Assembly: GCA_934271265.1 (NCBI GenBank)
Contig: CAKQRE010000016.1
Coordinates: forward strand, 21,135-85,134
Length of the DNA: 64,000 bases
Reading direction: 5' to 3'
Source of the DNA: an uncultured Clostridia bacterium
Lineage (GTDB): Bacteria; Bacillota; Clostridia; Christensenellales; Borkfalkiaceae
Position 1 is the first letter of the stretch. Each line of letters begins with the position of its first letter. The position numbers and the translations under genes were made by a program. This document shows positions 5,190 through 64,000 of the stretch, one piece after another. Under the pieces are notes generated by a model. That model saw only the letters and a program-made list of their open reading frames with translations. It had not been told where the DNA came from and ran no database searches.

Positions 5190-5200
5190 GAGGTTCTACT

Positions 5201-5821: not shown

Positions 5822-5823
5822 TT

Positions 5824-6012: not shown

Positions 6013-6022
6013 AAAGATAGAT

Positions 6023-6508: not shown

Positions 6509-6913
6509 ATGAACGAGTTGCCGCATCACAGCCGAGAAATTTACTATGATATATTCGACGGGCAAATAGACGAGTTGCGGTGGGTATATCTTGCCTTATG
6601 TGAAGAAGTGGAGTATCGGAAGAAAACGCTGAAAGAAAAGCCGAAGCCTACAAACTTCGAGAAGTTATACGCAGAAGCGGAAAAGATATGCAAGCGTTTG
6701 GATATGACCGCCGAAGAGTTCATACAAAAGAGATTCTTGCCGAAGCAAAAAGAACGGTTGGAGAAGCGGTACAAAGATTTTCGCAGGAAGTATAAGAATA
6801 TCGTTGTTGTGGATGAAGACGATCCGCGCCCGATTCGTGAACAGATAATAGACATATTCGGAGAAGGTCCCGAACCGCATTTCAGTAACCCCGAATTTCG
6901 CAAGAAAAAATAA
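6509..6913 (+). CDS. hypothetical protein (coupled to the sigma-like gene)
   Basis: The ATG directly abuts the preceding TGA (TGAATG). 134 aa, K/E-rich. Confidence 0.45.
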   Translation: MNELPHHSREIYYDIFDGQIDELRWVYLALCEEVEYRKKTLKEKPKPTNFEKLYAEAEKICKRLDMTAEEFIQKRFLPKQKERLEKRYKDFRRKYKNIVVVDEDDPRPIREQIIDIFGEGPEPHFSNPEFRKKK

Positions 6914-6985
6914 TTTCAAGAATTTTTGCGAAAATGGAATAATTATGGCGTTCTATTCGCTTGATATATGAAAGCAGAAATTGTA
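6914..6985 (+). repeat. intergenic direct repeat, copy 1
   Basis: ~72 bp starting right after a stop codon. Shares the perfect blocks AAATGGAATA and TATTCGCTTGATATATG with 8030-8101. Confidence 0.65.
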
Positions 6986-6989
6986 TATT
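6961..6989 (+). promoter_or_regulatory. candidate sigma-70 promoter for the DUF1016 gene
   Basis: TTGATA, 17-nt spacer, TATATT, about 15 nt upstream of the RBS GAGAGG and ATG 7005. Confidence 0.4.
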
Positions 6990-7004
6990 TAACGAGAGGT
7001 TAAA

Positions 7005-8027: not shown

Positions 8028-8029
8028 AA

Positions 8030-8101
8030 CTTTTCAAAAAATTTTTTATGAAATGGAATATTTCAGGCGTTTTATTCGCTTGATATATGGAGAGGGAAAT
8101 T
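8030..8101 (+). repeat. intergenic direct repeat, copy 2
   Basis: Second copy of the 6914-6985 block, also immediately after a stop codon. It runs into the oriT-like hairpin. Confidence 0.65.
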
Positions 8102-8121
8102 CCGTGTGTTTGCGCGGAATT
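8098..8121 (+). other. candidate oriT hairpin with GTGTGT nick-like motif
   Basis: AATTCCG / CGGAATT arms around TGTGTTTGCG. GTGTGT (8104-8109) fits my recollection of the MobV nick motif GTGBGT (pMV158 GTGTG/T). It lies upstream of the relaxase gene. Confidence 0.4.
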
Positions 8122-8179
8122 ACAACTATCTCAAATGTGGCGATTTCGTTATAATTAAAACTTAACAAACAGCGACAGG

Positions 8180-8206
8180 CTCACGGTTATATGCCGTGAG
8201 TTTTTT
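8180..8206 (+). terminator. rho-independent terminator
   Basis: CTCACGG-ttatatg-CCGTGAG followed by TTTTTT. Confidence 0.6.
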
Positions 8207-8431
8207 GTTGCAAGGAGATGTTGCATATGTGCTAATTAAAAGACTTTGCGGACGGTCTTAAAATGTTCGCGCGTGGACAAAAGACTTTTCAAATGAAGCA
8301 TAAAGCGGAGTTTGTTTTGACGAAAAGTATAGCCCACTATACTTCGCAAGCGAAGTGTGGGCTCTGCCGAGAGCTTTTGACCACAGGAAGAAAGAAAAAT
8401 ATTATAAGGAGGAAATGAAAACATCAGTTAT

Positions 8432-9595
8432 TTGGTATGCCATATGGAGAAATATCATAAAACGGATATTTGTCCTATTGAAAAGGAAAACGAGAGAGAT
8501 GAAACTTACGAAACAAGCAATCCGCAGATAGACAGTGAACGAACAAAAGACAATTATCGCACGTTCGCTCGGTATTGTACTTATACGGAATTTATCAATA
8601 AGCGGATTGAACAACTGAACTTGCCCACAAAACCGAGAAAGGACGCCGTGCTTATGGCGTCCTTCGTTATCGGCTCGGACGGAGAGTTTTTCAAAGGCTT
8701 AACGCAAACGGAACAAGAAAGATTTTTCTATGAATGTACGCGCTACTTTGCGGAGAAATACGGAGAAGAAAATATCATATCCGCCGTAGTTCACAACGAC
8801 GAAACCACGCCGCACCTACACTTAAATCTTATGCCTATAAGGAACGGACGGTTGTGTTGTAAAGACTTGTTCAACCGCACGGAACTTACAAAATTGCAAA
8901 CGGAATTTCACGAGGCGGTAGGAAAGCGTTGGGGTTTGGAACGCGGACGTGAAGGCAGTCCGAAAAAGCATTTGTCCACAGCGGAATACAAAGCAAAGAA
9001 AATTATAATGAACGCTTGCACCGAAGCGGCAGACATCACAGATAAAGCCGAAGAAAAGTTGCAAACAATAACCCAAGCCGTTAAGAAAGCCGAAGAACAT
9101 TTTGACGATACGATTGAACAGATACATACCGCCAAAGAAGAACGGGACAACATAATAGCCGAACGGGATTCGGAAGCGGACTATTCGGCAGCATTGAAAC
9201 AGGCAAAGAACGGAGAGATTGCTCACGACAAGAACGGAATGAAAACGCAAATCGTCGCGCTTACGGTGGAGAACAAAAATTTGACCGAAGAAAACGAACG
9301 GTTGAAAAAAGATAATACATATCTATTCGATTGTTACCAAAAGGAAAAGAAAACGCACAACGACCACGACAAAGCGTTACGGGCAATTGCGCTGTTCAGA
9401 GAACACGAACCCGAAGCGTTTGCAAGAGTATTCTACCGGTCTACTTCGGTATTGCAACCGTTCATATCTATCGGACAACCGCCCGCACCGCTTGCGAGAA
9501 ACCGCCTACGCGAGATAGAGGAAGAAATAAAACGCGAACAAGAACAAAAAAATCTTACACCACGCAAGAATAACAACTACGGCAAAGCAGATTAG
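8432..9595 (+). CDS. mob: MobV-family (Mob_Pre) relaxase
   Basis: VVHNDETTPHLHLNLMPI (HxDE...PHxH) and N-terminal ...EKENER...NPQIDSERTKDNY align with pMV158 MobM motifs. The start is ambiguous: TTG 8432, ATG 8444 or non-canonical ATC 8423. Confidence 0.85.
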   Translation: MVCHMEKYHKTDICPIEKENERDETYETSNPQIDSERTKDNYRTFARYCTYTEFINKRIEQLNLPTKPRKDAVLMASFVIGSDGEFFKGLTQTEQERFFYECTRYFAEKYGEENIISAVVHNDETTPHLHLNLMPIRNGRLCCKDLFNRTELTKLQTEFHEAVGKRWGLERGREGSPKKHLSTAEYKAKKIIMNACTEAADITDKAEEKLQTITQAVKKAEEHFDDTIEQIHTAKEERDNIIAERDSEADYSAALKQAKNGEIAHDKNGMKTQIVALTVENKNLTEENERLKKDNTYLFDCYQKEKKTHNDHDKALRAIALFREHEPEAFARVFYRSTSVLQPFISIGQPPAPLARNRLREIEEEIKREQEQKNLTPRKNNNYGKAD

Positions 9596-9628
9596 AAAAA
9601 CAAAGTCGTATTAATATTCTGCAAACGC

Positions 9629-9657
9629 TTGACTCTTTCGTCGTTACTTGCTATAAT
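9629..9657 (+). promoter_or_regulatory. sigma-70 promoter (TTGACT-17-TATAAT)
   Basis: Near-consensus hexamers with a 17-nt spacer. Followed by the 24-bp near-palindrome at 9662-9685, then RBS GGAGG. Confidence 0.5.
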
Positions 9658-9702
9658 AACAATGCGGCGTATAAATACGACGCATATATTTTGGAGGTTA
9701 TT

Positions 9703-9981
9703 ATGGAAAAGAAAGACAGAGCGGTTAAAGACAAGCGTTATGAGGACAGACACAAGGAAGAACGAAAATCCAAGTGTATGGTATGGGGAACGAGCGTACC
9801 GAGAGAGAAAGCCGAAAGAATAAACGAATTTTTGAAAAAGTACGGCTACACAAAGGTACAGTTAATCGAAGCGGGATATGAAGAATTATTAGCCCGACAC
9901 GACACCGACTTTGCAAAGCTCAAAGACGGTTACGATGATTTTTTCGGTTTTGAGGAAATCGAAAAAAAGAAAACCGAATAA
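9703..9981 (+). CDS. small RHH-like protein (possible regulator or directionality factor)
   Basis: GGAGG lies 5 nt upstream of ATG 9703. KSKCMVWGTSVPREKAERINEFLKKYGYTKVQLIEAGYEELL has a beta-strand/helix/helix pattern. It sits directly upstream of the recombinase. Confidence 0.45.
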   Translation: MEKKDRAVKDKRYEDRHKEERKSKCMVWGTSVPREKAERINEFLKKYGYTKVQLIEAGYEELLARHDTDFAKLKDGYDDFFGFEEIEKKKTE

Positions 9982-10236
9982 CTATTAAATCTTTTCGCAT
10001 AAGGAGGAACACGCGATGGAAAGAGAACATAGTATTCAAAGCTATAAGGACGCGGAATAATTCCGAGTAAACGTCCGAATAAGGATACTTGAACAAAAAA
10101 CAAATTACATATAGCAATCTTAATAGAGATAAAGAAAAAGACAACTTTAATGCGTTCATTGATACAATGGCGCAACTTATAAAAAAATACGGCGACAAAA
10201 TATTAGACGTCGCTTCAACCGATACGGAGAAGAACA

Positions 10237-11907
10237 ATGAATCGAGAAGGTAAAAAGTGTATTTTATATCCGCGAGTAAGTACCGAAATGCAAGTAGAGG
10301 GGTATAGTCTTGACGGACAGAAAAACAGTTTGAAAAGATTTGCCGAACGGGAAGAAATGCAAATAGTCGGAATCTACGAGGACGCGGGTAAGTCGGGAAA
10401 GTCGATAGAAGGGCGTCCGGCTTTTAAGCGGATGCTCTCCGATATTCAAGAAGGGCTTGAAGTGGATTACGTTTTAGTCTACAAACTTTCCCGTTTCGGC
10501 AGAAATGCCGCCGATATTCTTAATTCGTTGGAATTTATTCAGTCCTACGGCGTGAATCTGCTTTGCATTGAGGAAGGAATAGATTCTTCGCAGACAAGCG
10601 GAAAACTTTTGATTTCGGTTTTGTCTGCGGTTGCCGAGATAGAGCGCGAGAACATTCTCGAACAGACTATGAATGGACGCAGGGAAAAAGCTCGGCAAGG
10701 CAAGTGGAACGGCGGTCCCGCTCCGTATGGGTATAGTTTGAAAGACGACACGTTGGTTATAGAAGAAGATGAAGCGGAAATCGTACGGACGATTTTCGAT
10801 AAGTTCGTTCATACGAATATGGGCTATACGGGAATAGCGAAGTATCTTAATTTGCAAGGAATTAAAAAGACGCCGCGCAAGAAAACCGACATTGAAGAAT
10901 TTAGCGCGCATTTTATCAAGATACTTTTAGATAATCCCGTTTATTGCGGTAAGATCGCTTATGGAAGAAGAGCGCGGGAAAAAGTAAAAGGCACAAAAGC
11001 CGATTACAAAGTCGTGAACAAGCAAGATTTTTGTTTGGTTGACGGCTTGCACAAAGGAATTGTAGATGAAGAGCTTTGGGCAAGAGCGCACGAAAAAAGA
11101 CAGGAAACGGGAGTTAAATCTGAATCCAAATACGGCAAAGAGCGCGCTCATTTGCTTACGGGAATTATCAAGTGTCCGAAGTGCGGTAGCGGGATGTACG
11201 CCAACAGAGTTTGCTGGACGAAGAAAGACGGTACGTATAAAGAAGTTATGTATTATGCTTGCAGTCGCAACAAACAAGAGCGCGGGCATTACTGCGATTA
11301 TAGCGCAAACCTTAAAAAGACGGATATCGAGCCGCTCGTTATAGAGTTTATCAAAGATTTGGTGCAGGACGAACACTTTGCCATCGAGATAAAAAAGAAG
11401 ATAGGTTTGCAAGTCGATACTACGAAAATCGATACGGAAATAAGCAACTACGAAAGTAAGTTAAAGGAGGTGGAATTAAACAAAGCGAGATTGGAGCGTG
11501 AAATCGACTCGTTGCCGATAGATGCTGCGCACCGTGAAAGGAAATTGCACGATATGACTTTAAGGCTTGACGCATTATACGATACGATTGCGGAAATCGA
11601 AGAAAAAGTTGAAGATGCAAAACTACGAAGAAAGTCGGTGGAAGCGGAATTCATCACGAGGGAAAATATTTATAAAATTTTAGAGCATTTTGGGGAATTA
11701 TATGATATAATCAGTGAAGAGAAAAAGAAAGAGTTGATTGCGACTTTGGTCAAAGAAATTCAAATTTATCCCGACGGGGAGAGCGATACTCCCTTAAAAT
11801 CGATGAAATTCAACTTTCCCGTGTATAAAGACGGGCAAGAAGTAAACGAAATCTTTTTGGATAAGCAGACTAACGTCGAGACGCTCGTCGTGCTTTCCAG
11901 GCTTTAA
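10237..11907 (+). CDS. large serine recombinase
   Basis: N-terminal resolvase domain (ILYPRVSTEMQ...SLDGQ), recombinase domain and zinc ribbon (CPKCGS...YYACS). The last 10 codons (VETLVVLSRL) are the displaced rumA 3' end. Confidence 0.9.
   Translation: MNREGKKCILYPRVSTEMQVEGYSLDGQKNSLKRFAEREEMQIVGIYEDAGKSGKSIEGRPAFKRMLSDIQEGLEVDYVLVYKLSRFGRNAADILNSLEFIQSYGVNLLCIEEGIDSSQTSGKLLISVLSAVAEIERENILEQTMNGRREKARQGKWNGGPAPYGYSLKDDTLVIEEDEAEIVRTIFDKFVHTNMGYTGIAKYLNLQGIKKTPRKKTDIEEFSAHFIKILLDNPVYCGKIAYGRRAREKVKGTKADYKVVNKQDFCLVDGLHKGIVDEELWARAHEKRQETGVKSESKYGKERAHLLTGIIKCPKCGSGMYANRVCWTKKDGTYKEVMYYACSRNKQERGHYCDYSANLKKTDIEPLVIEFIKDLVQDEHFAIEIKKKIGLQVDTTKIDTEISNYESKLKEVELNKARLEREIDSLPIDAAHRERKLHDMTLRLDALYDTIAEIEEKVEDAKLRRKSVEAEFITRENIYKILEHFGELYDIISEEKKKELIATLVKEIQIYPDGESDTPLKSMKFNFPVYKDGQEVNEIFLDKQTNVETLVVLSRL
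11875..11898 (+). repeat. attR core (GTCGAGACGCTCGTCGTGCTTTCC)
   Basis: Matches 4842-4865 at 21/24 positions, in the same codon phase within the recombinase ORF. Confidence 0.7.
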
Positions 11908-11915
11908 TTGCGCAA

Positions 11916-11987
11916 AGTTTGCACTCATGTGTGCAAACTCTCGATTCTGTGTGCAAACTTACGATTCTGTGTGCAAACTCGTATTTT
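11916..11987 (+). repeat. iteron-like array: one inverted plus three direct GTGCAAACT copies, 20-bp period
   Basis: AGTTTGCAC (11916-24) is inverted to GTGCAAACT (11931-39). TGTGTGCAAACT recurs at 11928, 11948 and 11968. Confidence 0.7.
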
Positions 11988-12093
11988 GTCGGCGAAAAAG
12001 ATCGCCGATCGCGCAATGCGGAAGCGGATCGATAATACCACGGCGAACGGCGGCGAATAAAACGGTATAAAACGATTTTCACAAAAATTTTGC

Positions 12094-53864: not shown

Positions 53865-53982
53865 CATCATATTTTGTTTTGTTTTCTTTGTAAATTCTCC
53901 GTTGTTACGGGGCTGACTAAGACACGCGATCGAAACAATCTTTTCGGCTTGTTCTGCTTTTACGATTATGCCTGCAACGCCG

Positions 53983-55512
53983 TTAATGCAAATAAAAAGG
54001 AACCGCGGGTTCGACCACGGTTCCTTTTGGTGGACACATTGGTAAGATGTCCGAACAATTAGCGTAATTATTATCCCGACTATCGGTATCGTCCGAATCG
54101 TCGGGATTTTTGCGTTCCGTGAAGTTGAAATATATCTCGATTTTATCGTCATATACGATAATACTTTTAACGAGAATATGAAGTAAGAAACGCGGTTCTT
54201 GTCGCAATGAGTGCGTCAGATATTCAACGATTTCCTGTTTCGTCAATCTTTGGCTTTCACCATATTGTGCGATTACAATTTTATCGTTAAGCGTTTGTTT
54301 GCGTTCTTCCAACTCTTTCATACGGCGTTGAGTAGTTTCGGTTATAATACCTTGCTCGATGGCTCGCATAATGTTATCGAGTGCTTTTTGTACTTCGTCG
54401 CGGTCGCGTTTCAGCAAATCGACGACGGAATGTTCTTTTAATTTATCGTTATAGACAGCCATTACACAATCGGCAAGATAATTTATACGACTTTCAGTAC
54501 CGAAAACTTTGATAATGATTTCCAGAATTAAATTCTCAAATTCATCTTTTTTCAAGACGGAAGCGTGGCAAATATGCTTTTTCTTTCTGCCCATACATTT
54601 GTAGTAGTAAAATTTCGTTCCGTTTTTGCTCGTGCCGCTATCTCCTTGATAATGAGTGCCGCAACAGCCGCAAGTGATTTTGTTTCTTAACAGGAAAAGC
54701 GATTCAGGGCTACGCGAGCCGATTTTGTTTGCCGCAAGAATTGCTTGAACGCCGTCGAAAACTTCTTTGTCTACAATTTGCGGGTAGATATTGTCATAAA
54801 CTCCGTCGTCGTACCTTGCGATACCTACATATTTTTCTAATCGAAGAAAGTTGTAAATAGTGTTTTCGGCAAACGGTTTTCCGCGATACAAAATTCCTTG
54901 TTCGGTAAGGTTGTTAATAATCTCTCTTACGATTTTACCCGAAAAATATTCTTTGAAAATATATCTGACAACGTTTGCCTGTTCTTCGTTTATGAAAACT
55001 CGTTTATCCTTGTAGTAATAACCGTATGGCGGTCTGCCGCCGCTACAAAACCCTTTTTGACGGCTTTCGTGCAAACCGCGGCGTATTTTTTGCGAAAGTT
55101 CGGCGGAATAGTATTCAGCCAACCCGATATACATATTTTCGAGTATGATACCGTCGAGGTTTTTCGTTCCGTCGATATTTTCGCTCATTCTTTGTGTGGC
55201 AGATATAAGCATTTTCTTGTTCTTTTTCAATTTTTGCTTGTTGACGGCGATTTCGATAGAATTTCTACCGAAACGGTCGATAGCGTAAACAAGAACGATA
55301 TCCCACATAACGGGTTTTTCGGCGTCTTTCAGCATTTGTTGAAACGCGGGACGGTTGTCGTTTGTTCCCGTCATAGCCCTGTCGATATAAGTATCGAGGA
55401 CTTGCAATCCGTTTTGTTTTGCAAAATCGTTGCATATTCGCAACTGACCTTCGATGGATTGCTCGGTTTGTCGCTCACTTGAATAGCGGGCGTAAATTAC
55501 ACAATTTTTCAT
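53983..55512 (-). CDS. large serine recombinase
   Basis: MKNCVIYARYSSERQTEQSIEGQ resolvase catalytic-Ser region, recombinase domain and zinc ribbon CGCCG...YYYKC. 509 aa. Confidence 0.9.
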   Translation of the reverse strand: MKNCVIYARYSSERQTEQSIEGQLRICNDFAKQNGLQVLDTYIDRAMTGTNDNRPAFQQMLKDAEKPVMWDIVLVYAIDRFGRNSIEIAVNKQKLKKNKKMLISATQRMSENIDGTKNLDGIILENMYIGLAEYYSAELSQKIRRGLHESRQKGFCSGGRPPYGYYYKDKRVFINEEQANVVRYIFKEYFSGKIVREIINNLTEQGILYRGKPFAENTIYNFLRLEKYVGIARYDDGVYDNIYPQIVDKEVFDGVQAILAANKIGSRSPESLFLLRNKITCGCCGTHYQGDSGTSKNGTKFYYYKCMGRKKKHICHASVLKKDEFENLILEIIIKVFGTESRINYLADCVMAVYNDKLKEHSVVDLLKRDRDEVQKALDNIMRAIEQGIITETTQRRMKELEERKQTLNDKIVIAQYGESQRLTKQEIVEYLTHSLRQEPRFLLHILVKSIIVYDDKIEIYFNFTERKNPDDSDDTDSRDNNYANCSDILPMCPPKGTVVEPAVPFYLH

Positions 55513-55545
55513 TTCGATTGTTCCTTTTCTATTTTTTTTGTTTCA

Positions 55546-55588
55546 AGTATAAACCTGCAATTATTCAATAGCCAGAACCACGGCGTGC
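55546..55588 (-). promoter_or_regulatory. element-specific promoter-like motif, copy C (upstream of the recombinase)
   Basis: Minus strand: CACGCCGTGGTTCTGG, 21-nt spacer, TATACT. It lies 34 nt upstream of ATG 55512. Confidence 0.5.
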
Positions 55589-55811
55589 CGAATTTGTATC
55601 GAATTTGTCCGTCTATAAATTCCGAACGTGAACGGATACAAGCAGTATTGAAACCGCAAAGCGGTATATTTGAAACTTTTTTTGTCGATTTGTCTTTTTT
55701 CTTTCGACACCCCGAACTCAATCGGGAAAGCAACGCAGTCTGTCAAGGAAAAAGAAAAAAATATTGCGTTTTTATTTTTCCTTTTAATGTTTTACGCGAT
55801 AATTTTTTCCC

Positions 55812-55839
55812 TTGACAGCAAGTGCTTTTCTGATACGAT
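55812..55839 (+). promoter_or_regulatory. sigma-70 promoter (TTGACA-16-TGaTACGAT)
   Basis: Consensus -35 and an extended -10. It would give a ~255-nt leader before ORF 56098. Confidence 0.45.
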
Positions 55840-56023
55840 CCAACCCAAAAATAGAGAAAGAAAAAGTGTAAGTCGTAAAGTTGTCCGAGAAAACAAACGG
55901 CAAATCTTCTCGTTTCGATAATGGTTACATTGAAATCACAATCGGGTTACGTTCGTGTTTGTTTCAGGTTGCCATAGAGTTGCTTTTATCTCGCGTTTCC
56001 GTTACAAAGAAGTCCTTTTTGCT

Positions 56024-56065
56024 CACGCCGATGTTCTGGTTTTTCAAAGAAACACGGTGTATAGT
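56024..56065 (+). promoter_or_regulatory. element-specific promoter-like motif, copy A
   Basis: CACGCCGATGTTCTGG, 20-nt spacer, TATAGT. It lies 32 nt upstream of ATG 56098 (RBS AAGGAGG). Confidence 0.5.
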
Positions 56066-56097
56066 GGTGGCAGAAAACAAAAAGGAGGTAACGTCGG

Positions 56098-56286
56098 ATG
56101 AAAGAAATCGTATTGAACGATAATCCAACGAAAAAACGTATCTATATCGAAAACACTGAACCGGATTTCTCAAAAATACCGAAAAAAGATATAGATTTAT
56201 TCGTTTCGTTGTTAGGCAATAAAATGTACGAACATTTCAAAAACCGTCGAAAGCATAAATCGAGAGATTCCCCACGAAACGCGTAA
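56098..56286 (+). CDS. hypothetical small protein
   Basis: 62 aa with a strong RBS AAAAGGAGG 7 nt upstream. Confidence 0.45.
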   Translation: MKEIVLNDNPTKKRIYIENTEPDFSKIPKKDIDLFVSLLGNKMYEHFKNRRKHKSRDSPRNA

Positions 56287-56351
56287 AACAAACGACCTGT
56301 GCATAAATTCGTACACCCTGAAAAATTTCACGAAAACGGGCTTACTACTCC

Positions 56352-56380
56352 TTGACAATATGAATTGAAACGAGTATAAT
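56352..56380 (+). promoter_or_regulatory. consensus sigma-70 promoter of the LexA-like gene
   Basis: TTGACA, 17-nt spacer, TATAAT. An imperfect palindrome GAAATATATGTTTC (56395-56408) lies downstream. Confidence 0.55.
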
Positions 56381-56430
56381 AAAAACACTTAAATGAAATA
56401 TATGTTTCAGATAGGTTGTGGGGTTCTTTT

Positions 56431-57036
56431 ATGCGCAGTAAGAACGAAGAAGTCTTAAACAGAATAATCGAGATAATAAACAACAGTTATTTTCAAGAAA
56501 GCGAAACGCCTTCGATGAAAGAAATTGCCGACGAATTGAATATAAGCGTGCCTACCGTATGCAGATATATCACCGAACTTATAGAACGCGGCGAGATTGA
56601 AAAAAGCAGTAGATTTCGCGGAGTTCAGACGGCAAAGATAGCAAGGCTAAAAGCGGAAGCGAAATGCCCCGTTGTAGGCGAGATTGCTTGCGGCGTACCT
56701 TTATTGGCAGAAGAAAATATCGAATCGTATATTACTCTTTCGCGGGAATATTTAGGTTCGGGCAAATTTTTTATTCTGCGAGCGAAAGGCAACAGTATGA
56801 TAAACGCAGGCATATCCGACGGCGATTTAGTGGTGGTAAGGCAACAGGAAACAGCCGAAGAAGGTCAAATCGTAGTTGCTCTTATCGACAACGAAGCGAC
56901 TTTAAAACGCTATTATCTCGATAATCGGCATAAACGCATTCGATTACACCCTGAAAACGATAAAATGGAAGATATGTTTTATGAAACGATTTCCATTCAA
57001 GGCGTTGCGGTCAAGGTTATAAAAGACTTACAATAA
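56431..57036 (+). CDS. LexA-like S24 peptidase repressor
   Basis: N-terminal wHTH (SMKEIADELNISVPTVCRYITELIERGEI). Hinge PVVGEIACGVPLLA. S24 catalytic GNSM (Ser) and TLKRYY (Lys). 201 aa from ATG 56431. Confidence 0.8.
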   Translation: MRSKNEEVLNRIIEIINNSYFQESETPSMKEIADELNISVPTVCRYITELIERGEIEKSSRFRGVQTAKIARLKAEAKCPVVGEIACGVPLLAEENIESYITLSREYLGSGKFFILRAKGNSMINAGISDGDLVVVRQQETAEEGQIVVALIDNEATLKRYYLDNRHKRIRLHPENDKMEDMFYETISIQGVAVKVIKDLQ

Positions 57037-57186
57037 TTTTGGTAATAATCCGAGCGGAATGCCCCGTCCGCAATGATTTTTTACAGGTACAAAAGATGAT
57101 TTACCGCGATAACGGATTTCCCGACCGTATCAAGCAGTAAATCAAATACAAATCTTTATGTGCTATGGGAAAAAAGGAGTATATGT

Positions 57187-57384
57187 ATGCAAAATACGAC
57201 TTTCAAACGCGGCTCTGCCGGACTAAGAAAGGAATGTCCGGACTGTCACAGGTATTTTACGGCACAACTTAATGCAGACGGCGATTACGTCGGCAAGTGT
57301 CCGTTTTGCGGCTCGTGGTATTTCGAGCAATTCAGAAAGAACGAGCATTTTATAAAAACGGTACGCAAAAATACGAATTTTTAA
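57187..57384 (+). CDS. zinc-ribbon small protein
   Basis: CPDC...CPFC pairs. RBS AAGGAG 7 nt upstream of ATG 57187. Confidence 0.45.
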   Translation: MQNTTFKRGSAGLRKECPDCHRYFTAQLNADGDYVGKCPFCGSWYFEQFRKNEHFIKTVRKNTNF

Positions 57385-57603
57385 CAACTAAATTAAAAAA
57401 CGAAAACGTCTATCCCGACAAAGCGAGGTCGAACTGAAACAGCGTTCAAGATAAAGCCTTGTTCCCCGTCGGAATAGGTAAGATTCGATAGGAGAAAATG
57501 TCCCCGAACCGAATGTAAACCTTTGAAAAAGTTTACAAACCGCGCGGGGGCATTTTTTATGCTCCGGGGCGGAAAAATCTGAATTTTCAGGAGCATTTTA
57601 TAT

Positions 57604-57903
57604 ATGAAAAGTTTTGAAGCAATCCGAGAAGATTTGCGAAACATAAGGTATTACTACTCGCGTAAAGAACAGATGAGCGCGACGGCAAAAATAGTGGGCG
57701 AAAGCAATGTTTTGAAAACGGTAAATGAATATAACGAAATAGTCTGCCAAGCGCCGCCCAAACTTTATGAATTATATTTTTGTATGTATGTAGAAAACAA
57801 AACACAGGAATCGGCAGCCGAAGAATTCGGTTATGCCCGCGAACACGTTACAAGGCTGAACAAACAGTTGTTACGTTTTATCCAAAATCATTTAGCAGCA
57901 TAA
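57604..57903 (+). CDS. sigma region-4 / ArpU-RinA-like transcriptional regulator
   Basis: 99 aa. C-terminal KTQESAAEEFGYAREHVTRLNKQLLRFI is a region-4-type HTH. Confidence 0.5.
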   Translation: MKSFEAIREDLRNIRYYYSRKEQMSATAKIVGESNVLKTVNEYNEIVCQAPPKLYELYFCMYVENKTQESAAEEFGYAREHVTRLNKQLLRFIQNHLAA

Positions 57904-57918
57904 AGGAGATGAAAAACC

Positions 57919-58167
57919 ATGAAAAATTTAATACCGTATTTTGTTATCGGCGCAGATAACGTTTACAGAACGAAACATTATATCGTAAAGCAAAGTATCA
58001 AAAAGATCGAACATTTAACGGAAGATAATATGCTCGTCAGCCATGACACGTTTTATTTAAGAACGCCGCATAGGGATATGCTTTACAATATGTACTACGC
58101 AGACAAGAAAAATAAAAACGGCAAAAGATTTCCGTATACGACTTACACGCGAAGGTATGTCAACTAA
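57919..58167 (+). CDS. hypothetical protein
   Basis: 82 aa, RBS AAGGAG, followed by a terminator. Confidence 0.4.
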   Translation: MKNLIPYFVIGADNVYRTKHYIVKQSIKKIEHLTEDNMLVSHDTFYLRTPHRDMLYNMYYADKKNKNGKRFPYTTYTRRYVN

Positions 58168-58169
58168 CG

Positions 58170-58198
58170 AAAAGCAAGGCTTAACCGCCTTGCTTTTT
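58170..58198 (+). terminator. rho-independent terminator
   Basis: AAAAGCAAGGC-ttaacc-GCCTTGCTTTT. Confidence 0.7.
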
Positions 58199-58305
58199 CT
58201 ATGCCTAAATTGCTATGTTTCGTTGTGGTTACATTTATGTTCCAAGCCACCGTTTTCCCTGTTACAATCGCGTTTTTTGGCGGTTGCAAAGATGTCCTTT
58301 TTGCT

Positions 58306-58347
58306 CACGCGGGTGTTCTGGCTTTTTGAGTTTTCGGGGTTTATACT
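58306..58347 (+). promoter_or_regulatory. element-specific promoter-like motif, copy B
   Basis: CACGCGGGTGTTCTGG, 20-nt spacer, TATACT. It sits between the terminator and the operon starting at 58561. Confidence 0.5.
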
Positions 58348-58560
58348 GTATGCGTAATCGAAAGCGAGAACAGATTTCCGACTGTTGCTTGCGGACTTTT
58401 GCAAAGATAAAGGCGGCCGCCTTCCGACAATAAGTCGCACGAAGCAGAACGTTTCAAAACTCGTAAAGATTACAAAAAGTACAATTTAATATTTTTTCAT
58501 TCGCTGCGCTAACGGCAACACGGGCAAATTACAAAAATCTAAATTATAGGGAGTTTACAA

Positions 58561-58872
58561 ATGGCAAAAGAAAGCAAAGCCGCTGCTAACAAAGGCGGCG
58601 AAAAAAGAGAACGCAGGTGGAGCGTGCCTACAAAACGCGCCAAAGGTTACGCGGAAGAACGCAAGGCAAAAGTCCATCAGCACGGAGAAAAAGAAGGTAA
58701 AGAACTTACCGACTACGAGGCAGGTCTTCGCTCCGGTTATTTACAATGTCAGAGTGACCATAGCGGACTGTACAAGTACAAAAAGGCGCTCGACGAAGGC
58801 AAAAGCAAAGAAGAAGCAACAAGAATTTCCAGAGAAATCGGAAGCAAAAAAACAAATCACAAGGAGAAATAA
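58561..58872 (+). CDS. basic hypothetical protein
   Basis: 103 aa, K/R/E-rich, RBS AGGGAG. Confidence 0.5.
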   Translation: MAKESKAAANKGGEKRERRWSVPTKRAKGYAEERKAKVHQHGEKEGKELTDYEAGLRSGYLQCQSDHSGLYKYKKALDEGKSKEEATRISREIGSKKTNHKEK

Positions 58873-58876
58873 AAAT

Positions 58877-59230
58877 ATGGCAGAAAACAAAATTAAAAAC
58901 CCTATCAAGGTTGAAAGAGAAACTTTTGAAATGGACGACAAACAGTATTTTTCTTACTTTATCAGGGGAACGGTTCGCGGTAAAGACGTAAAAGTTGCAA
59001 TCGTACCCCCTGATAAGGGCGGTTACGTTGTGTTGGATATCGTATTTGACGGAGCAATGGAAGCCGAACTCGTTGTTATTCCTTACGAAATGAAGGATGA
59101 TAACGGCAAAACGATTAAAGGCAACACCTATGCGGTTCGTTCTTACGACGATGACGGTACAGTTTACGAATGTAAAGTAAAACCCTTCCGTTATTCCGAC
59201 AAAAACATTCTCGATATGCTTTTGAGGTAA
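58877..59230 (+). CDS. hypothetical protein
   Basis: ATG 58877 follows AAGGAG (58861-66). 117 aa, predicted mostly beta. The ORF-track upstream extension overlaps the previous gene. Confidence 0.5.
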   Translation: MAENKIKNPIKVERETFEMDDKQYFSYFIRGTVRGKDVKVAIVPPDKGGYVVLDIVFDGAMEAELVVIPYEMKDDNGKTIKGNTYAVRSYDDDGTVYECKVKPFRYSDKNILDMLLR

Positions 59231-59262
59231 TTATAAAAATAAAAAAAGAGAGGTAAAACGAA

Positions 59263-60369
59263 ATGAAAAATAATAAACTTTTCAAAATTCTTATGAGTGG
59301 AACGCTCTGTATCGCAGCCGTAGTCGGAAGCGTTTTCGGACTTGTGGCTTGCGGAAATAAAAACGACGATTCTTCGCAAAAGTCGGCGTATAAGCCGATT
59401 ATCGACGATATTGTCGGTGAAGCAGATAATGAAAATGGCGTCGGCAATGTGGATTATGACATAGGCAATACGCCCAACATTAAACTTATGGCAGTAAGAA
59501 AGTTTGCCGCTAACGGAAGTCTTGAAGAAAGTGAACTCGAAGTAGCGGCAACGATTACGCCTGAAAACGCCACGAACAAGGCTGTTGATTGGAGCGTTGC
59601 GTTCCAGAATGCAAGTTCCGCGTGGGCAAGCGGTAAAAACGTTAGCGATTACGTTACGGTAACACCCGATTCAGACGGTTCGCTTAAAGCGACGGTTAAA
59701 AATCTTAAAGCGTTCGGCGAAAAAATCGTCGTTACGGTAACGTCGAGGGCAAATGCGGCTGTGAAAGCGACTATCGTCTGCGATTACAACAGAAAAGTTA
59801 CGGCTATTTCTTCCGCAAACCTTGTAAAAGGCGGCGCGTCGGTTGCATTTAACAATATCGTGATAGGCGGACTCGGCAATGCAAGCGACAACGCGGCATA
59901 CACCATAGGTCATACTTCCGCATTTTCGGATTATACGGTAGCGGGAACGGAAAAAATTACGAGCAAAATCAAGTTCAACGACGCTTTCGTTGACGGCGTA
60001 AAGACCTTGCTTGCAACCGAATATAAAACCGTTTGGGAAGATTGTATGAGAACGGCTTCCGCAGTGGATAAAACCGCATACGATTTCTCTACTATGGCAG
60101 GTTTAATGCTGACGAAAGACAACTCTACCGCAACCAAGAATAAGTTGGCCGCAGGCGTTCTGAACGCTTGTATGGTAGCGGTGGATTCGTGGATAAAGGC
60201 TAATCCTACCACGGCTTTTGCGACCGTTACGGTAAAATCGGATATGCTTAACGCTTCTAACGTAAGTTATCAGGATATATCCAAAGATTTCTCGCTTATG
60301 TTTGCGGCAAACGGACATTATATCCCCGTAACCGGCGTAACCGTAACTCCGGAAACTATTATCTGGTAA
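59263..60369 (+). CDS. lipoprotein with Big_2-like Ig domain
   Basis: Lipobox GLVAC. ATITPENATNKAVDWSV...VTVTPDSDGSLKATV resembles bacterial Ig-like group 2. Confidence 0.6.
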   Translation: MKNNKLFKILMSGTLCIAAVVGSVFGLVACGNKNDDSSQKSAYKPIIDDIVGEADNENGVGNVDYDIGNTPNIKLMAVRKFAANGSLEESELEVAATITPENATNKAVDWSVAFQNASSAWASGKNVSDYVTVTPDSDGSLKATVKNLKAFGEKIVVTVTSRANAAVKATIVCDYNRKVTAISSANLVKGGASVAFNNIVIGGLGNASDNAAYTIGHTSAFSDYTVAGTEKITSKIKFNDAFVDGVKTLLATEYKTVWEDCMRTASAVDKTAYDFSTMAGLMLTKDNSTATKNKLAAGVLNACMVAVDSWIKANPTTAFATVTVKSDMLNASNVSYQDISKDFSLMFAANGHYIPVTGVTVTPETIIW

Positions 60370-60375
60370 TAGATT

Positions 60376-60558
60376 ATGAGAAAATCTATGGCAGGGCGAA
60401 GTGTTCTTCGCAACATAATTACGGTGGTAATGTCGCTGTCCGTAGTCGTTCTGGCAAGCGGAGCGTTTGCCTTTCTTGCCAAGAAAGTATGGTCTCCTTC
60501 GGATAACGAAATTCCGGTTAAAGAAATAATCGTCGATACGTTGACGATAGATTTTTAG
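60376..60558 (+). CDS. small single-pass membrane protein
   Basis: 60 aa with a TM segment IITVVMSLSVVVLASGAFAFL. Weak RBS. Confidence 0.35.
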   Translation: MRKSMAGRSVLRNIITVVMSLSVVVLASGAFAFLAKKVWSPSDNEIPVKEIIVDTLTIDF

Positions 60559-60622
60559 CCAAAGTAAAGGGGGCTTGAAATACAGTCCCCTTTAAATAAA
60601 AAATAAATTATGGAGGTATTAA

Positions 60623-62185
60623 ATGCAAAACTTAAAACACGGCGAATATGCCGTTAATCGACATATAGCCGCACTTATAACGTTTATTCTGCTTATAACG
60701 AGTATCCTTACGATATTCGCCTCTTGCGAGAAAACGGAAGAAAAATCAACGATTCAGAACAACGATTTAGCATTTGAAGATAACAGCCTTAATGCGAATA
60801 TGTTGTTTTCGCCTATTAAACTGAATGCGGCAGATTCTTTGGCTTTGGCTTCTTACACCGTTAAAGCAACAATTCAGCCCGCAACGGCAAGTAATCAACA
60901 GGTGGATTGGAAAGTTGAATGGGCGTTTAACGCGACGTTAAAAAATCAAAAGATAAGCGATTATCTTTCCGTAACGCCCGACAGCGACGGTTCGCTTTCG
61001 GCAAGAGTCGATTGTTATAAATCGTTCATAGGAAATACTGCTGTATTGTCTGCAACGACGAGGAATGGCAAAATAAAAGGAACTTGCAATATCGTGTTCA
61101 TAGGTAAAGCAACGGACATTGCCGTTGAAAGCAAGACTGTTAAAAAATCGACAACTGAACGCGGTGAATATTACGAGGTTTACCCTAATAAAACGCATAC
61201 GTTCGATATAAATCTCTCAAATATATTCAACAGCGTTGCCTCACCGAAATTTACCGTAACGCGAGGCGGTAACGGTTCTGTGTATTTCGGAACGGAATAT
61301 GCAGCCCCCGACATAACGTCTTACAAAGATATAACGAAAAAAAACATAAATGAATTCGCGGACAGGTTTATAACTTCGGCAAGCGTTTCCGGTTCTACTC
61401 TCACCATAAAAACCGGCGATAAAAAACTTGAAGAATTTTATTCTTCGTCGCAGCCCGACGGCGCGTTATGGGGAACTACATATTACGACAGATATATCGA
61501 AGTCGATGAATTTGATTTACTTATGGATGACGAATACGATAAAAAAGCCGAGCAAAACGTGCAATTGCTCAAATCCTGTTATTTTTATGTAACCGTAAAA
61601 GACGAAGTGAGCGGACTTTCCGAAACGATAAAATTATTCTTTGTGGACGCCCCGAAACCGCTTATAAATTATACAACCGATTTAACGCCTACGACGACAG
61701 CCGAACGCGGAACGTTTTATCAATTACAGCCGAAAAAGACTTACACGTTTAATCTTTCGGTTGAAAATGCGGAAAACCCGACATTCTCCGCTGTCAGAAC
61801 GGGTACGGGAAACGTATATTTCGGTACGGAGTATGCTGCTGCGGATGTTACCACGTTTTCGGACATTACAAAGAAAAATCTTAATTCTTTGGTAAATCAG
61901 TTTATCACATCGGCTACGATCTCAAACGGAGTTCTTACCATAACTACGGGAGATAAAGATCTGAACAGTTATTATTCGTCATCTAAAATGGACGACGCTA
62001 TGTGGGGGACATCGTATTATGACAGATATGTTTTCGAGGATGAATTCGATATGGTCGGCGGAACGGACTTTGCCGAAAAATCCAAAGAAAACATAGAACT
62101 TGTGAAGTCGTGTTATTTTTCGGTCACGATAGTCGTAAAAAGCGACGGCGTAAGTTCTTCGAAAGCAATCAGATTCTTTATATAA
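60623..62185 (+). CDS. lipoprotein with a Big_2-like domain and an internal ~180-aa tandem duplication
   Basis: Lipobox IFASC. ATIQPATASNQQVDWKV...VTPDSDGSLSARV. Residues ~178-345 and ~360-520 are clear repeats (..ERG.(Y/F)Y...P.KT(H/Y)TF...NVYFGTEYAA.D(I/V)T...DITKKN...). Confidence 0.6.
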   Translation: MQNLKHGEYAVNRHIAALITFILLITSILTIFASCEKTEEKSTIQNNDLAFEDNSLNANMLFSPIKLNAADSLALASYTVKATIQPATASNQQVDWKVEWAFNATLKNQKISDYLSVTPDSDGSLSARVDCYKSFIGNTAVLSATTRNGKIKGTCNIVFIGKATDIAVESKTVKKSTTERGEYYEVYPNKTHTFDINLSNIFNSVASPKFTVTRGGNGSVYFGTEYAAPDITSYKDITKKNINEFADRFITSASVSGSTLTIKTGDKKLEEFYSSSQPDGALWGTTYYDRYIEVDEFDLLMDDEYDKKAEQNVQLLKSCYFYVTVKDEVSGLSETIKLFFVDAPKPLINYTTDLTPTTTAERGTFYQLQPKKTYTFNLSVENAENPTFSAVRTGTGNVYFGTEYAAADVTTFSDITKKNLNSLVNQFITSATISNGVLTITTGDKDLNSYYSSSKMDDAMWGTSYYDRYVFEDEFDMVGGTDFAEKSKENIELVKSCYFSVTIVVKSDGVSSSKAIRFFI

Positions 62186-62198
62186 GGCGGTGACGGAT

Positions 62199-62765
62199 AT
62201 GAAAAACAGTTTAATCAAAACAATTTCATACATAGCGGTTCTGCTCGTCATCTCGCTTGTAATCGGGTTCGTAATATTTCTTACAAACGGTTTTACGGAA
62301 GCGCCTAAAAATTTCTATGTGGAAATAGGTAACGAAAGAGTTGCGTCGTCTACGGGCGGCTACACTTTTGAAAAAGGTAAACCTACCGACGTGAAACTGA
62401 TATTTATAGGGAACGGCAGTAAGGAATACTCCGTAAAAATCACACCGAAAACGGATTATGATTTTTCGTTTTTCGCAGACAGCGAAGAAGTAAAATTTTC
62501 GGCTGCGGACGATTATAGCGATTGTTTTAATATCGTAAAAAAGGACAACGGGTTCAGTATTGAGCCGAAAGGAACTTTATATACCGTTCTAATGCGGAAA
62601 TATTCCGAAAAAGATATTAAGATTGACAAATCGGCAATTCCCGACGGCGATATGTTTACGCTCGAAATTAAAGCCGCGTCAGCCGAAGCCACTGTCAAGA
62701 TAAATTTCAAAGTGCCTAATCCCGAGGCTGAAATCGTAATAGATCCGACGGAGATAATTATTTGA
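62199..62765 (+). CDS. N-terminally anchored membrane protein
   Basis: ATG 62199, 8 nt after AAGGCGG. TM segment ISYIAVLLVISLVIGFVIFL. Confidence 0.5.
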   Translation: MKNSLIKTISYIAVLLVISLVIGFVIFLTNGFTEAPKNFYVEIGNERVASSTGGYTFEKGKPTDVKLIFIGNGSKEYSVKITPKTDYDFSFFADSEEVKFSAADDYSDCFNIVKKDNGFSIEPKGTLYTVLMRKYSEKDIKIDKSAIPDGDMFTLEIKAASAEATVKINFKVPNPEAEIVIDPTEIII

Positions 62766-64000
62766 GATTTATCAAACGATTAGCCGTTTTATGCGCAACG
62801 CTTTGCCTTCTCTTTACGGGAATGCAAAGCACCGCAAATGTGGCTTTTGCGGAAGATAAAACGGCTACCGATGTTCTGGAAGATTTAAGCAGGGATAAGT
62901 CGTTCAATCCGGACAACTATCCGACCAAAACGGACGACTATTCTTTGCAGATAATTCAACTTGCCGAAAGCGTAGATAAAGAACTTTTCGTTTATATCTA
63001 CCAGCCGAGTGGAAAAGCCAAAGACTTCAAAGCGTCGTCTATCAACATTTCGACCACGATAAACGACAACATTTCGTATCTGAATTACAAACTCGAAATG
63101 CTAAATGGTAGCGGCGTGTTTTACAAATACAAAGTTTCGGGACTTACGGTCAAGGACGAAAGCGTGAGATATTACGCTATCAGTTCTATATATCGTCCGT
63201 TCGACGAAAGCATAGATAAACAAGCAAGTGGCGGCAATACCGTTACCGAAGTAAATTACGCAGTCAATAAGCAGTATGCCTTCGGTTCAATCAACGGCAA
63301 ACCGTATGTAAATTGCGTGGATATAGAAACCATCGTCGTTACGGATAAATTCGTGGGCTTTGTAAGGTATAAAGACGGTTTTAAACTATACGTTGGAGCG
63401 TGCGACAGCCATTTCGTGGCGTTCAACACGGACAAGCCCATAGACAAACTCTTGGAGGCGGACGTGTATTACACAACGCAAAGTTACGATTGGTCTTCTG
63501 CTCCCTTTGTCGGAGTAAAAGAAACTTTCGGGGATAAAGCGGACAAATACGCCTATCTCAAATACACGGATAAAGTCGAACATACCGGTGACGGCTTATT
63601 TGCGGGAACGTATAAGTGGGACAGAATTCAGACGATTGACGACTTTATAAAAGGCGAAAACCGCGAGAATATCTACCACGGCGCAGTCCTTGACGTAAAG
63701 ACTTCATCGAAACTGACGGACGAAGCCCTGACCGAACTCAAAGGAAAGAAATGGGTATTGCGTTTTACAGAAACAAGTTACTCTTTAAGCGGTTATTCGA
63801 CAACCGGTTCTACGTTTGAAAGTTATACGCTCGTGGGCGACGTTACCATACTTCGATTGAAGTTTGAAACGGACGGCATAACCTACAACTTGGGCGTTAT
63901 AGACAACAAGCAATCGGGCAGCAAAGATCCGTCCAACGAAACGGACATCGACATAAGTCTGAACAAGCGCGGAAAGATGATTTTGTATCTCTTGATGCTC
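62762..64000 (+). CDS. secreted protein, 3'-partial (absent from the ORF track)
   Basis: My translation from TTG 62762 (GGAG 8 nt upstream; TTGA overlap with the previous stop) stays open for 413 codons to the window edge. Signal peptide RFIKRLAVLCATLCLLFTGMQSTANVAFA. Confidence 0.6.
   Translation, partial: MRFIKRLAVLCATLCLLFTGMQSTANVAFAEDKTATDVLEDLSRDKSFNPDNYPTKTDDYSLQIIQLAESVDKELFVYIYQPSGKAKDFKASSINISTTINDNISYLNYKLEMLNGSGVFYKYKVSGLTVKDESVRYYAISSIYRPFDESIDKQASGGNTVTEVNYAVNKQYAFGSINGKPYVNCVDIETIVVTDKFVGFVRYKDGFKLYVGACDSHFVAFNTDKPIDKLLEADVYYTTQSYDWSSAPFVGVKETFGDKADKYAYLKYTDKVEHTGDGLFAGTYKWDRIQTIDDFIKGENRENIYHGAVLDVKTSSKLTDEALTELKGKKWVLRFTETSYSLSGYSTTGSTFESYTLVGDVTILRLKFETDGITYNLGVIDNKQSGSKDPSNETDIDISLNKRGKMILYLLML

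Follow-up and report, generated by a model that had tools for sequence, protein, structure and literature searches.

Three promoter-like sites with phased upstream repeats in a putative integrative element of Clostridia, and a small sigma-region-4-like protein as their candidate activator

In the present study we analysed 64,000 nucleotides (nt) of DNA from an uncultured Clostridia bacterium of the Christensenellales (GenBank assembly GCA_934271265.1, contig CAKQRE010000016.1, positions 21,135 to 85,134; this whole stretch is called the window hereafter), in the last part of which a putative integrative element carries three copies of an unusual promoter-like motif. Judged by sequence and setting, the three sites are evidently real, regulatory and promoter-like, non-canonical at -35 and correctly oriented. 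With a probability that we put at about 0.55, they would be co-regulated, activator-dependent promoters, served by the host primary sigma factor together with sig99, a protein of 99 amino acids (aa) encoded by the element, which would sit on phased arrays of direct repeats. A preliminary description of this DNA had proposed an element-encoded specificity factor that co-regulates recombination and cargo. Since the sites are conserved in related elements, co-regulation by an element-encoded factor seems to be the best reading; the word cargo and the idea of a new stand-alone sigma specificity are not supported.

The composite pattern CACGCSGNNGTTCTGG-N20/21-TATAST matched the window three times, at 55546-55587 on the minus strand (copy C), at 56024-56065 on the plus strand (copy A) and at 58306-58347 on the plus strand (copy B), and gave 0 matches in each of 100 dinucleotide-preserving shuffles (0 expected). 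The copies noticed beforehand were thus all recovered as exact matches, with none elsewhere in the 64 kb. For the 16-mer alone, allowing up to 2 mismatches, there were 4 matches in the window against 0.89 expected, the fourth (at 43134, with 2 mismatches) lying in a host gene. Copy C (CACGCCGTGGTTCTGG-N20-TATACT, predicted start near 55539) faces the gene of a large serine recombinase, copy A (CACGCCGATGTTCTGG-N20-TATAGT, predicted start near 56072) faces orf62, and copy B (CACGCGGGTGTTCTGG-N20-TATACT, predicted start near 58354) precedes a conserved leader and a long operon; as had been stated, each precedes a transcription unit, pointing at a gene start, copy B across the leader. The spacer is 20 nt in all three copies, and the 21 nt and the end at 55588 formerly given for copy C are to be corrected to 20 nt and 55587. 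From the -10 to the ATG we measured 32 nt for copy A (ATG 56098), exactly as described, and 33 nt for copy C (ATG 55512), for which 34 nt had been reported, while 213 nt separate copy B from orf103 (58561). Copies A and B share a direct repeat of 44 nt with 89% identity. About 107 nt upstream of copy B there is a terminator hairpin (58169-58199; -17.4 kcal/mol, z = -5.6, followed by UUUUUCU), in agreement with the earlier placement of this copy just after a terminator. No terminator was seen between copy A and the operon of a LexA-like gene further downstream, and read-through from copy A into that operon is possible.

A simple sigma-70 scan called none of the three copies because their -35 region does not fit, and it recognised no sigma-70-like -35 there, which bears out the former remark that the upstream block is unlike TTGACA. 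Furthermore, dyad symmetry is absent from the motif, the motif and the arrays upstream of it being direct repeats. Several familiar signals were also considered and rejected. The -10 of sigma-28 (GCCGAT) was found only in copy A and in lineage G2, and the -24/-12 elements of sigma-54 on neither strand (both read by eye); the Firmicute LexA box GAAC-N4-GTTC is represented by its GTTC half alone; the consensus sequences of extracytoplasmic-function and sporulation sigma factors were dropped on reading; and curvature caused by phased A-tracts was set aside because conservation falls on GTT..C columns and not on T-runs.

All three blocks extend upstream into phased direct-repeat arrays about 100 bp long. 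These became visible when the 110-130 nt upstream of each GTTCTGG were stacked in rows of 11, nGTT(A/G/T)C units recurring in register. The array of copy A (55924-56023, plus strand) holds about nine phased GTT(A/G/T)C units, and period 11, compared among periods 7-26 for the three copies, reached z = 4.6 there (0/500 shuffles). Upstream of copy C (55588-55680, minus strand) the units, e.g., GGCAC, GATAC, GGACA, GTTCAC and GTTTC, lie about 11 nt apart (z = 2.6). Upstream of copy B (58217-58305, plus strand) they read TGTTTC, GGTTAC, TGTTCC, TGTTAC, GGTTGC, TGTCCT and CTCAC (z = 1.4), and this array is in register with that of copy A via the 44-nt repeat. When 15 regions were tested singly among periods 9-13, period 11 came out highest in 10. 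Ten upstream regions of 110 nt, from three lineages, contained 45 GT[TC]NC units against about 8 in shuffles, and the positions of these units relative to the anchor shared a single phase (pooled R 0.71-0.73, period 10.8-11). The ten promoters are related and cannot count as independent trials. Because shuffles hold few such units, they are a weak control for phase, and we rely instead on the enrichment and on R.

Given an array phased at about 11 bp, the block CACGCSG-NN-GTTCTGG represents its promoter-proximal one and a half units, and the motif as first defined has to be redrawn accordingly, as the end of a longer array. If transcription starts about 7 nt after the -10, the 16-nt block would span about -48 to -33 with its centre near -41, the position of a class II activator. 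Copies A and B within one element are about 90% alike in two lineages, and the orthologous A-A and B-B pairs between those lineages are 69-79% alike, the pattern to be expected by concerted evolution if all sites were to fit one lineage-specific protein.

We followed these sites into related loci. A search of one-genome-per-species contigs with a sig99 profile gave 32 loci, most of them titled as Christensenella, Christensenellales or Clostridia metagenome-assembled genomes and two bearing other labels. A search of metagenomes with a profile of orf117, a structural protein of the copy B operon, gave 80 loci out of 357 confirmed matches. Loci L001-L037 trace to sig99 itself (32 via the genome scan), and those from L038 onwards, retrieved via orf117, are the only set blind to sig99. 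Gene order was conserved across both sets, with synteny in more than 60 loci. Scans of IMG/VR with the single proteins sig99 and orf117 gave no relatives, and a scan with the orf117 alignment gave two only.

The exact 16-mer occurs at the same places in six loci with an identical sig99 and also in L008 and L009, whose sig99 is 75-77% identical. Orthologues of the copy C site were found in L009, L010 and L011, and orthologues of the copy A site likewise in related loci. In distant lineages the upstream half changes to TTACAWTGGT (L007 and L010), GGGATWGAKT (the L017-L028 group) or AAGGAAGAC (L014), and what is common to all lineages is only (G/T)T(T/C)CT-N22-TAnnnT; the CACGCSG part of the original motif is lineage-specific. 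The expectation that the motif recurs in related elements was borne out in Christensenellales and other Clostridia relatives, beyond the close ones for the GTTCT part and the -10 only. The arrays change likewise: L009 has about nine copies of GGT(T/C)ACA, the region upstream of the L010 recombinase about eight of TGTTTCAAC (z = 5.3) and L016 five of AT(T/A)GGGTAGAT, and L023 has TTGGG(G/A)TAAA repeats.

For 20 promoter instances from about ten lineages, the spacing was exactly 20 each time under a search pattern that allowed 19-21. The T..CT and TA...T columns were fixed by this pattern and are not independent evidence; at the free positions of the -10, position 3 is T in 15/20 and position 4 is A in 16/20, which matches TATAAT. 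Across lineages the spacer sequence is unconserved, and position and spacing are kept where the proteins are only 45-75% identical and the spacers have diverged. A -10 in which T-A-n-n-n-T is invariant speaks for the host primary sigma factor with an activator and against a new stand-alone sigma specificity.

The candidate activator sig99 (57604-57903, plus strand) is a helix-turn-helix (HTH) protein resembling sigma domains 3/4. Its family comprises 27 clusters, all unnamed and without Pfam domains. Pfam Sigma70_r4 matched 15/18 members, all below the cutoff, and the NCBIfam sigma70 superfamily model matched the C-terminal ~50 residues in 18/18 (residues 44-97). The AlphaFold2 model (predicted local distance difference test score 93) has six helices, and its top Foldseek matches were SigB, sigma-28 (with as many as 96 columns aligned) and the SigD/SigF domains that bind the -35, all of them weak with E-values of at least 0.13; the plasmid HTH regulators KorA and ArdK scored similarly. 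Additionally, phrog_36, a 'transcriptional regulator', matched the HTH, and no other part, of 18/18 members (best E 1.4e-5), while the sig99 of the window itself had no PHROG match at 1e-3, and no RinA or ArpU model matched in NCBIfam. Region 2 is absent from sig99, with its 99 aa and six helices equivalent to domains 3/4, and the protein is therefore not a stand-alone sigma factor.

One link between sig99 and the arrays is the co-variation of its predicted recognition helix with both the repeat type and the proximal element. The helix AREH(V/I)TRLNKQ goes with GTYNC repeats and proximal GTTCTGG, TPEY(I/V)Q with TTGGG/TTAGG repeats and proximal TTTCT(G/A)(G/A), SPDYVRK with GTGGGTAAA repeats and proximal GTCTGTG, and STQTIKR with TGTTGGC repeats and proximal GTTCTGG; two loci from the sig99-blind search, L069 and L092, fit the TPEY class. 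Furthermore, among non-identical loci with enough upstream sequence, pooled over both searches, the strict copy B motif is present in 29/60 with sig99 versus 2/24 without it. In the sig99-less class an HTH_11-type regulator stands where sig99 would be, orf82 runs straight into the leader, and no terminator, array or promoter is found there at the copy B position. By predicted fold, helix/repeat co-variation and co-occurrence, sig99 thus appears as the best candidate for the activator, as which it had been put forward before. Loci L036 and L037, which carry the same structural genes behind a different regulatory module, were tried as a test separating sig99 from the LexA-like repressor and rejected as uninformative: both proteins differ, and the promoter is of another type (an inverted repeat before TATAAA).

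Several observations weigh against sig99 as the activator of these promoters. The sig99-blind loci (L038 onwards) give only about 10/35 with sig99 versus 2/24 without; as many of the sig99-less loci are, moreover, close kin, the pooled figure makes the association look much stronger than it is. Of the 60 sig99 loci, 31 lack the strict motif, some having variant promoters and others none there. Two loci, L038 and L105, keep the copy B core without a detectable sig99 nearby, and these may be recombinants, decayed copies or dependent on sig99 in trans. The co-variation of helix and repeat is confounded by shared descent, regulatory modules being swapped whole. The protein is only weakly basic (isoelectric point, pI, 7.75), and copy B by itself gives a weak period-11 signal. 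As sig99 lies in the operon of the repressor, under a strong, constitutive-looking promoter, a threshold or some extra control must be assumed. When sig99 was aligned by hhalign with ORF044 of Staphylococcus phage 37, taken as a member of the LtrA family of phage regulators from its position next to terS, the probability was 11%, over 25 HTH columns only. Finally, the zinc-ribbon protein of the element, orf62 and orf82 are possible binders as well. As to the two exceptional loci themselves, GTTCTGG-N20-TATACT is followed by the leader and the structural genes at 6400-6480 of L038 and at about 1200-1300 of L105, and the sequence upstream of it is unrelated.

The second regulator is a LexA/CI-like S24 repressor with an N-terminal winged HTH (56431-57036, plus strand). 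Its gene has the textbook promoter previously ascribed to it, a sigma-A-type TTGACA-17-TATAAT at 56352-56380 on the plus strand, and 14 nt after the -10 there follows an inverted repeat, TGAAATATATGTTTCA (TGAAA-N6-TTTCA, 56394-56409), which is probably the autoregulatory operator of the repressor. In the 64 kb this repeat has a single exact copy, and with up to one mismatch there is none within the element outside 56394-56409. In every related locus TTGAC(A/T)-17-TATAAT stands before the repressor gene and is followed, 8-14 nt after the -10, by a lineage-specific inverted repeat: TGAAA-N6-TTTCA in lineages G1 and G2, GCAA-N6-TTGC in G3, CGGAAAAC/GTTTTCCG in L012, L036 and L037, AGAAT/ATTCT in L014, CAGAAC-N4-GTTCTG in L025 and CGAAAC/GTTTCG in L029. 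The recognition helix of the winged HTH varies in parallel with the repeat. Operator class and array class vary separately, G1/G2 and G3 differing in operator and sharing one array type. A repressor with a separate operator downstream of its own promoter, no copy of which lies at the motif, argues against its binding there, and the motif has no dyad; the alternative once offered, that the LexA-like protein represses the three motif copies, is accordingly not supported. The zinc-ribbon gene znr65, sig99 and orf82 would be under this repressor as members of the same operon, which runs up to the terminator at 58169. The protein has Cys-Gly as a putative cleavage site at the expected position, a GNSM motif with its Ser and a TLKRY motif with its Lys, as compared with UmuD, which makes a RecA-dependent trigger plausible.

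Taken together, we favour the following scheme, in which the binding partners, the direction of regulation and the transcription starts are what we infer from sequence. The host primary sigma factor would read the TATAST -10, and an element-encoded DNA-binding protein, most likely sig99, would stand in for the missing -35 by occupying the ~11-bp phased direct-repeat array that ends in the CACGCSG-NN-GTTCTGG block. The LexA-like S24 repressor would bind the inverted repeat past its own promoter and hold down the operon of the lexA-like, zinc-ribbon, sig99 and orf82 genes. Upon inactivation of the repressor, presumably by RecA-stimulated self-cleavage, sig99 would rise and then turn on three units at once, namely the recombinase from copy C, the structural/replication operon from copy B and, from copy A, orf62, with transcription reading on into the operon of sig99 itself (a positive loop).

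The same architecture could be served by another binder, the zinc-ribbon protein, orf62 or orf82 in place of sig99, a variant that we consider possible at clearly lower odds. All three genes are conserved beside the promoters in lineages G1-G3, and their products are basic (pI 9.3-9.9, versus 7.75 for sig99); L038 combines the copy B core with zinc-ribbon genes nearby and no sig99, and the zinc-ribbon protein is Ogr/Delta-like in size and cysteine pattern. However, each of them fails in some lineage with the motif: the zinc ribbon has no match in the motif-bearing lineage G4 and in L104/L107, orf62 is missing from G4, G5 and L104, and orf82 is missing from the motif-bearing L014/L015 and L110 and present in all 22 loci that lack both sig99 and the motif. 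Moreover, no Ogr-type TGT-N12-ACA dyad was seen by eye upstream of the three copies, and none of the three proteins has a recognisable DNA-binding fold in Pfam or PHROGs.

A closer tie of sig99 to RNA polymerase also deserves weighing. As part of the holoenzyme, sig99 might be a surrogate region 4 (sigma appropriation) or one half of a split sigma factor, reading GTTCTGG as a -35 at the unusual spacing of 20 nt. The match of its fold to sigma domains 3/4, over up to 96/99 residues for sigma-28, the GTTCT kept at a fixed 20-nt distance in every lineage and the co-variation of the proximal element with the recognition helix would all suit such a role. Nevertheless, we regard it as improbable, for a partner resembling region 2 was not identified, the -10 still has the pattern of a primary sigma factor, a sigma-type contact has no need of long upstream arrays, and the Foldseek E-values (at least 0.13) are weak, with KorA and ArdK scoring similarly. 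In a related version, which we rate as doubtful though a shade less so, sig99 would dock on host RNA polymerase as a sigma domain 3/4 in its own right, replacing or standing beside region 4 of the primary sigma factor, and would read GTTCT at its fixed 20-nt distance from the -10 while further copies polymerise along the repeats. If true, this would amount to single-protein sigma appropriation and to an ultrasensitive switch by which the genes for excision, replication and particles are fired at the same time.

The arrays and the 16-nt block may conversely be read as repressor sites, bound by a polymerising protein of the Cox/Apl kind or by the LexA-like protein, which would keep three weak sigma-A promoters silent until induction. 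Proteins of the Cox/Apl type, both excisionases and repressors, bind to such arrays of phased direct repeats, one array does lie at the recombinase promoter, and an S24 repressor is encoded next door. Yet the arrays lie upstream of about -33 and leave the -10 and the start site uncovered, promoters without a usable -35 would be weak even if derepressed, and the inverted-repeat operator of the LexA-like protein lies elsewhere, with no copy at the motif sites; we hold this to be unlikely. That the repeats are non-functional, left by chance or by a recent internal duplication as the 44-nt repeat of copies A and B could suggest, is very improbable indeed, given three copies versus 0 expected and positions and spacing that persist in lineages with 45-75% identical proteins while the spacers diverge.

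All lineages, even those that have no promoter at this place, conserve the leader between copy B and orf103 (58348-58560, plus strand). A fold of five helices fits its core (58379-58455) in a plain MAFFT alignment of 25 diverse sequences. In this model, which was drawn by eye from the same, related sequences on which it was then counted, 80% of cells are paired versus 33-45% with the partners slid, and 0/500 shuffles reach the observed values. In 17/21 pairs both sides have changed, e.g., CGAC/GTCG, CGAT/ATCG, GCAA/TTGC, GACT/AGTC and GGAC/GTCC. RNAalifold on the raw leader alignments returned the GGCC hairpin only. Two of the hairpins are fully palindromic, centres included, one of them with an invariant GGCC centre, and the counts of G-U and A-C are similar (18 versus 23), so that an RNA, a single-stranded DNA (origin or packaging signal) and dyad sites for a protein are indistinguishable. 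Rfam gave no match in 53.5-64 kb at E up to 1, the leader included. At 58505-58535, and in the related loci, boxes GCTAACGGCAACACGGGCAAA closely precede the ribosome-binding site of orf103; they are conserved across lineages and in many relatives repeated as GCTGCACTATCGGCAAAACGGGTAA.

As to the element as a whole, the G+C content falls from about 0.50 to 0.40 from ~53.9 kb to the window end, and the island at 53900-64000 appears to be one end of a ~13.5-kb integrative rolling-circle element. It contains the large serine recombinase (Resolvase, Recombinase and Zn_ribbon_recom domains; 53983-55512, minus strand), the gene served by copy C. Behind copy A there follow on the plus strand orf62 (56098-56286), which encodes a small basic protein of pI 9.85, the S24 repressor gene, the 65-aa, four-cysteine zinc-ribbon gene znr65 (57187-57384), whose product is the alternative candidate regulator, sig99, and directly after it its conserved partner orf82 (57919-58167), which also occurs in lineages without sig99; the intrinsic terminator at 58169-58199 closes this regulatory operon. 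Behind copy B and its leader, the long conserved operon with orf103, orf117, lipoproteins and membrane proteins (58561-64000, plus strand) runs off the window end. In full-length copies, which we reached via orf191 (ATG start 62199), it extends gap-free over about 9 kb to the Rep gene (PF23343, REP_ORF2-G2P), and is therefore the conserved core of the element and not, as it had been called, cargo. The element appears to end soon after Rep, because the sequence beyond it differs between copies. For tailed-phage genes, there was no terminase or structural match in PHROGs, nor any informative PHROGs match at 1e-3 for the element proteins, and the element may belong to a family of prophages without tails, pleomorphic or filamentous-like, in gut Clostridia.

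The relatives vary in their cargo. In some, the S24 repressor gene is immediately followed by genes for a UmuC-like Y-family polymerase and a YolD-like protein, and one has a Schlafen/AlbA_2 ATPase-like gene between the recombinase and orf62 (L037, 6456-8043; L054, 3242-4823; L009, 4804-6138). Variants among L033-L036 swap the serine recombinase for a tyrosine integrase, and a block TTTGTCTTTCGAC...TGTCAAGGAAAAAG at 55680-55755 of the window is shared with the tyrosine-integrase variants L036 and L037. The 585-nt spacer between the recombinase and orf62 also contains a second sigma-70-like site, TTGACA-16-TACGAT with TG (55812-55839, plus strand), with no obvious gene behind it. Just past Rep, on the opposite strand and near the presumed right end, L033 (near 15816, minus strand) and L035 (near 15801, minus strand) have a loose fourth match, TGTTCTTAG-N-TATATT/TATTTT, which may be chance. 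A second G+C-poor stretch of the window (4001-12000; 0.42 versus 0.50-0.55 around it) has no motif copy and could be another island.

If the favoured scheme is true, it provides the regulatory logic of uncharacterised and apparently common ~13.5-kb integrative elements of human-gut Christensenellales and other Clostridia, for which a search with one structural protein, orf117, already gave the 357 metagenome matches. It would be a two-tier cascade, in which an SOS-type repressor controls a sigma-region-4-like activator, and the activator in turn the recombinase, regulatory and structural/replication operons from three matched promoters. The helix/repeat pairs, such as AREHxTR with GTYAC and TPEYxQ with TTGGG, could moreover serve as orthogonal switches.

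Among known systems, late activation by the zinc-finger proteins P2 Ogr and P4 Delta uses a TGT-N12-ACA dyad near -55, which is not seen by eye here, and the zinc ribbon has no Ogr/Delta family match. In T4 MotA/AsiA sigma appropriation and in split sigma factors such as SigO-RsoA of B. subtilis, a phage or accessory protein takes over the recognition of the -35 while the contact with the -10 stays with region 2, and the MotA box is centred at -30. Here, in contrast, no AsiA-, MotA- or region-2-like partner was found, and the promoter block is centred at -36 to -41. P2 Cox and 186 Apl are small phage proteins that sit on 6-9 helically phased direct repeats and couple the control of recombination and transcription; they repress by covering promoters and serve as excisionases for tyrosine integrases. 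The long phased direct-repeat arrays are alike, but ours lie upstream of promoters without a -35, and the recombinase is of the serine type. Closer in promoter layout are the pho boxes of PhoB/PhoP (OmpR family), ~11-bp direct repeats that replace the -35, adjoin a -10 of the primary-sigma type and, lying at a class II position, serve to recruit polymerase. The present sites likewise have ~11-bp phased direct repeats in place of a -35 beside a normal -10 (period 10.8-11; TAnnnT); they differ in that the arrays are much longer and encoded on a mobile element, and that the element has no response regulator, the only winged HTH being that of the S24 repressor.

The nearest described counterpart is the Ltr superfamily of late transcriptional activators in Gram-positive phages, which comprises RinA, ArpU, LtrA (Sigma70_r4), LtrB (DUF1492) and LtrC and acts at terS promoters (Quiles-Puchalt et al. 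2013, PMC3753634; Ferrer et al. 2011, PMC3152322). Its members bind lineage-specific direct repeats just past their own gene and activate the terS promoter, and the LtrA family is defined by similarity to sigma region 4, with a C-terminal part that sets the specificity (PMC3753634). The likeness extends to a small regulator at the end of the regulatory cluster, sig99 being followed only by orf82 and the terminator before copy B; to a C-terminal HTH like sigma region 4, as indicated by the Pfam and NCBIfam matches, AlphaFold2 and Foldseek; and to direct repeats, differing by lineage, that lie past the regulator gene and ahead of the late promoter (58217-58314 here) and whose type tracks the sig99 helix. 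Placement of the regulator under a cI/S24-type repressor may be a further parallel, the S24 gene here heading the sig99 operon, with a lineage-specific inverted repeat 14 nt after the -10 of its promoter. After ORF044 of Staphylococcus phage 37 (L122, 2480-2560) there are GTCACA/GTACAA-like units that resemble the GTYACA repeats, which may be a coincidence. Unlike the Ltr systems, the target is not the terS/morphogenesis operon of a tailed phage but one of lipoproteins, membrane proteins and the PF23343 Rep; there are three target promoters in place of one, including that of the recombinase and one feeding the regulator's own operon; and the arrays hold about 8-10 units phased at ~11 bp versus 2-4 repeats of seven nt. 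The design would appear to work like an Ltr 'late regulator', by analogy rather than by established homology to the tested Ltr proteins. No new principle of transcription is involved; rather, a known phage 'late activator' design would recur in an undescribed family of elements and, if true, extend the 'late transcriptional regulator' beyond the tailed phages.

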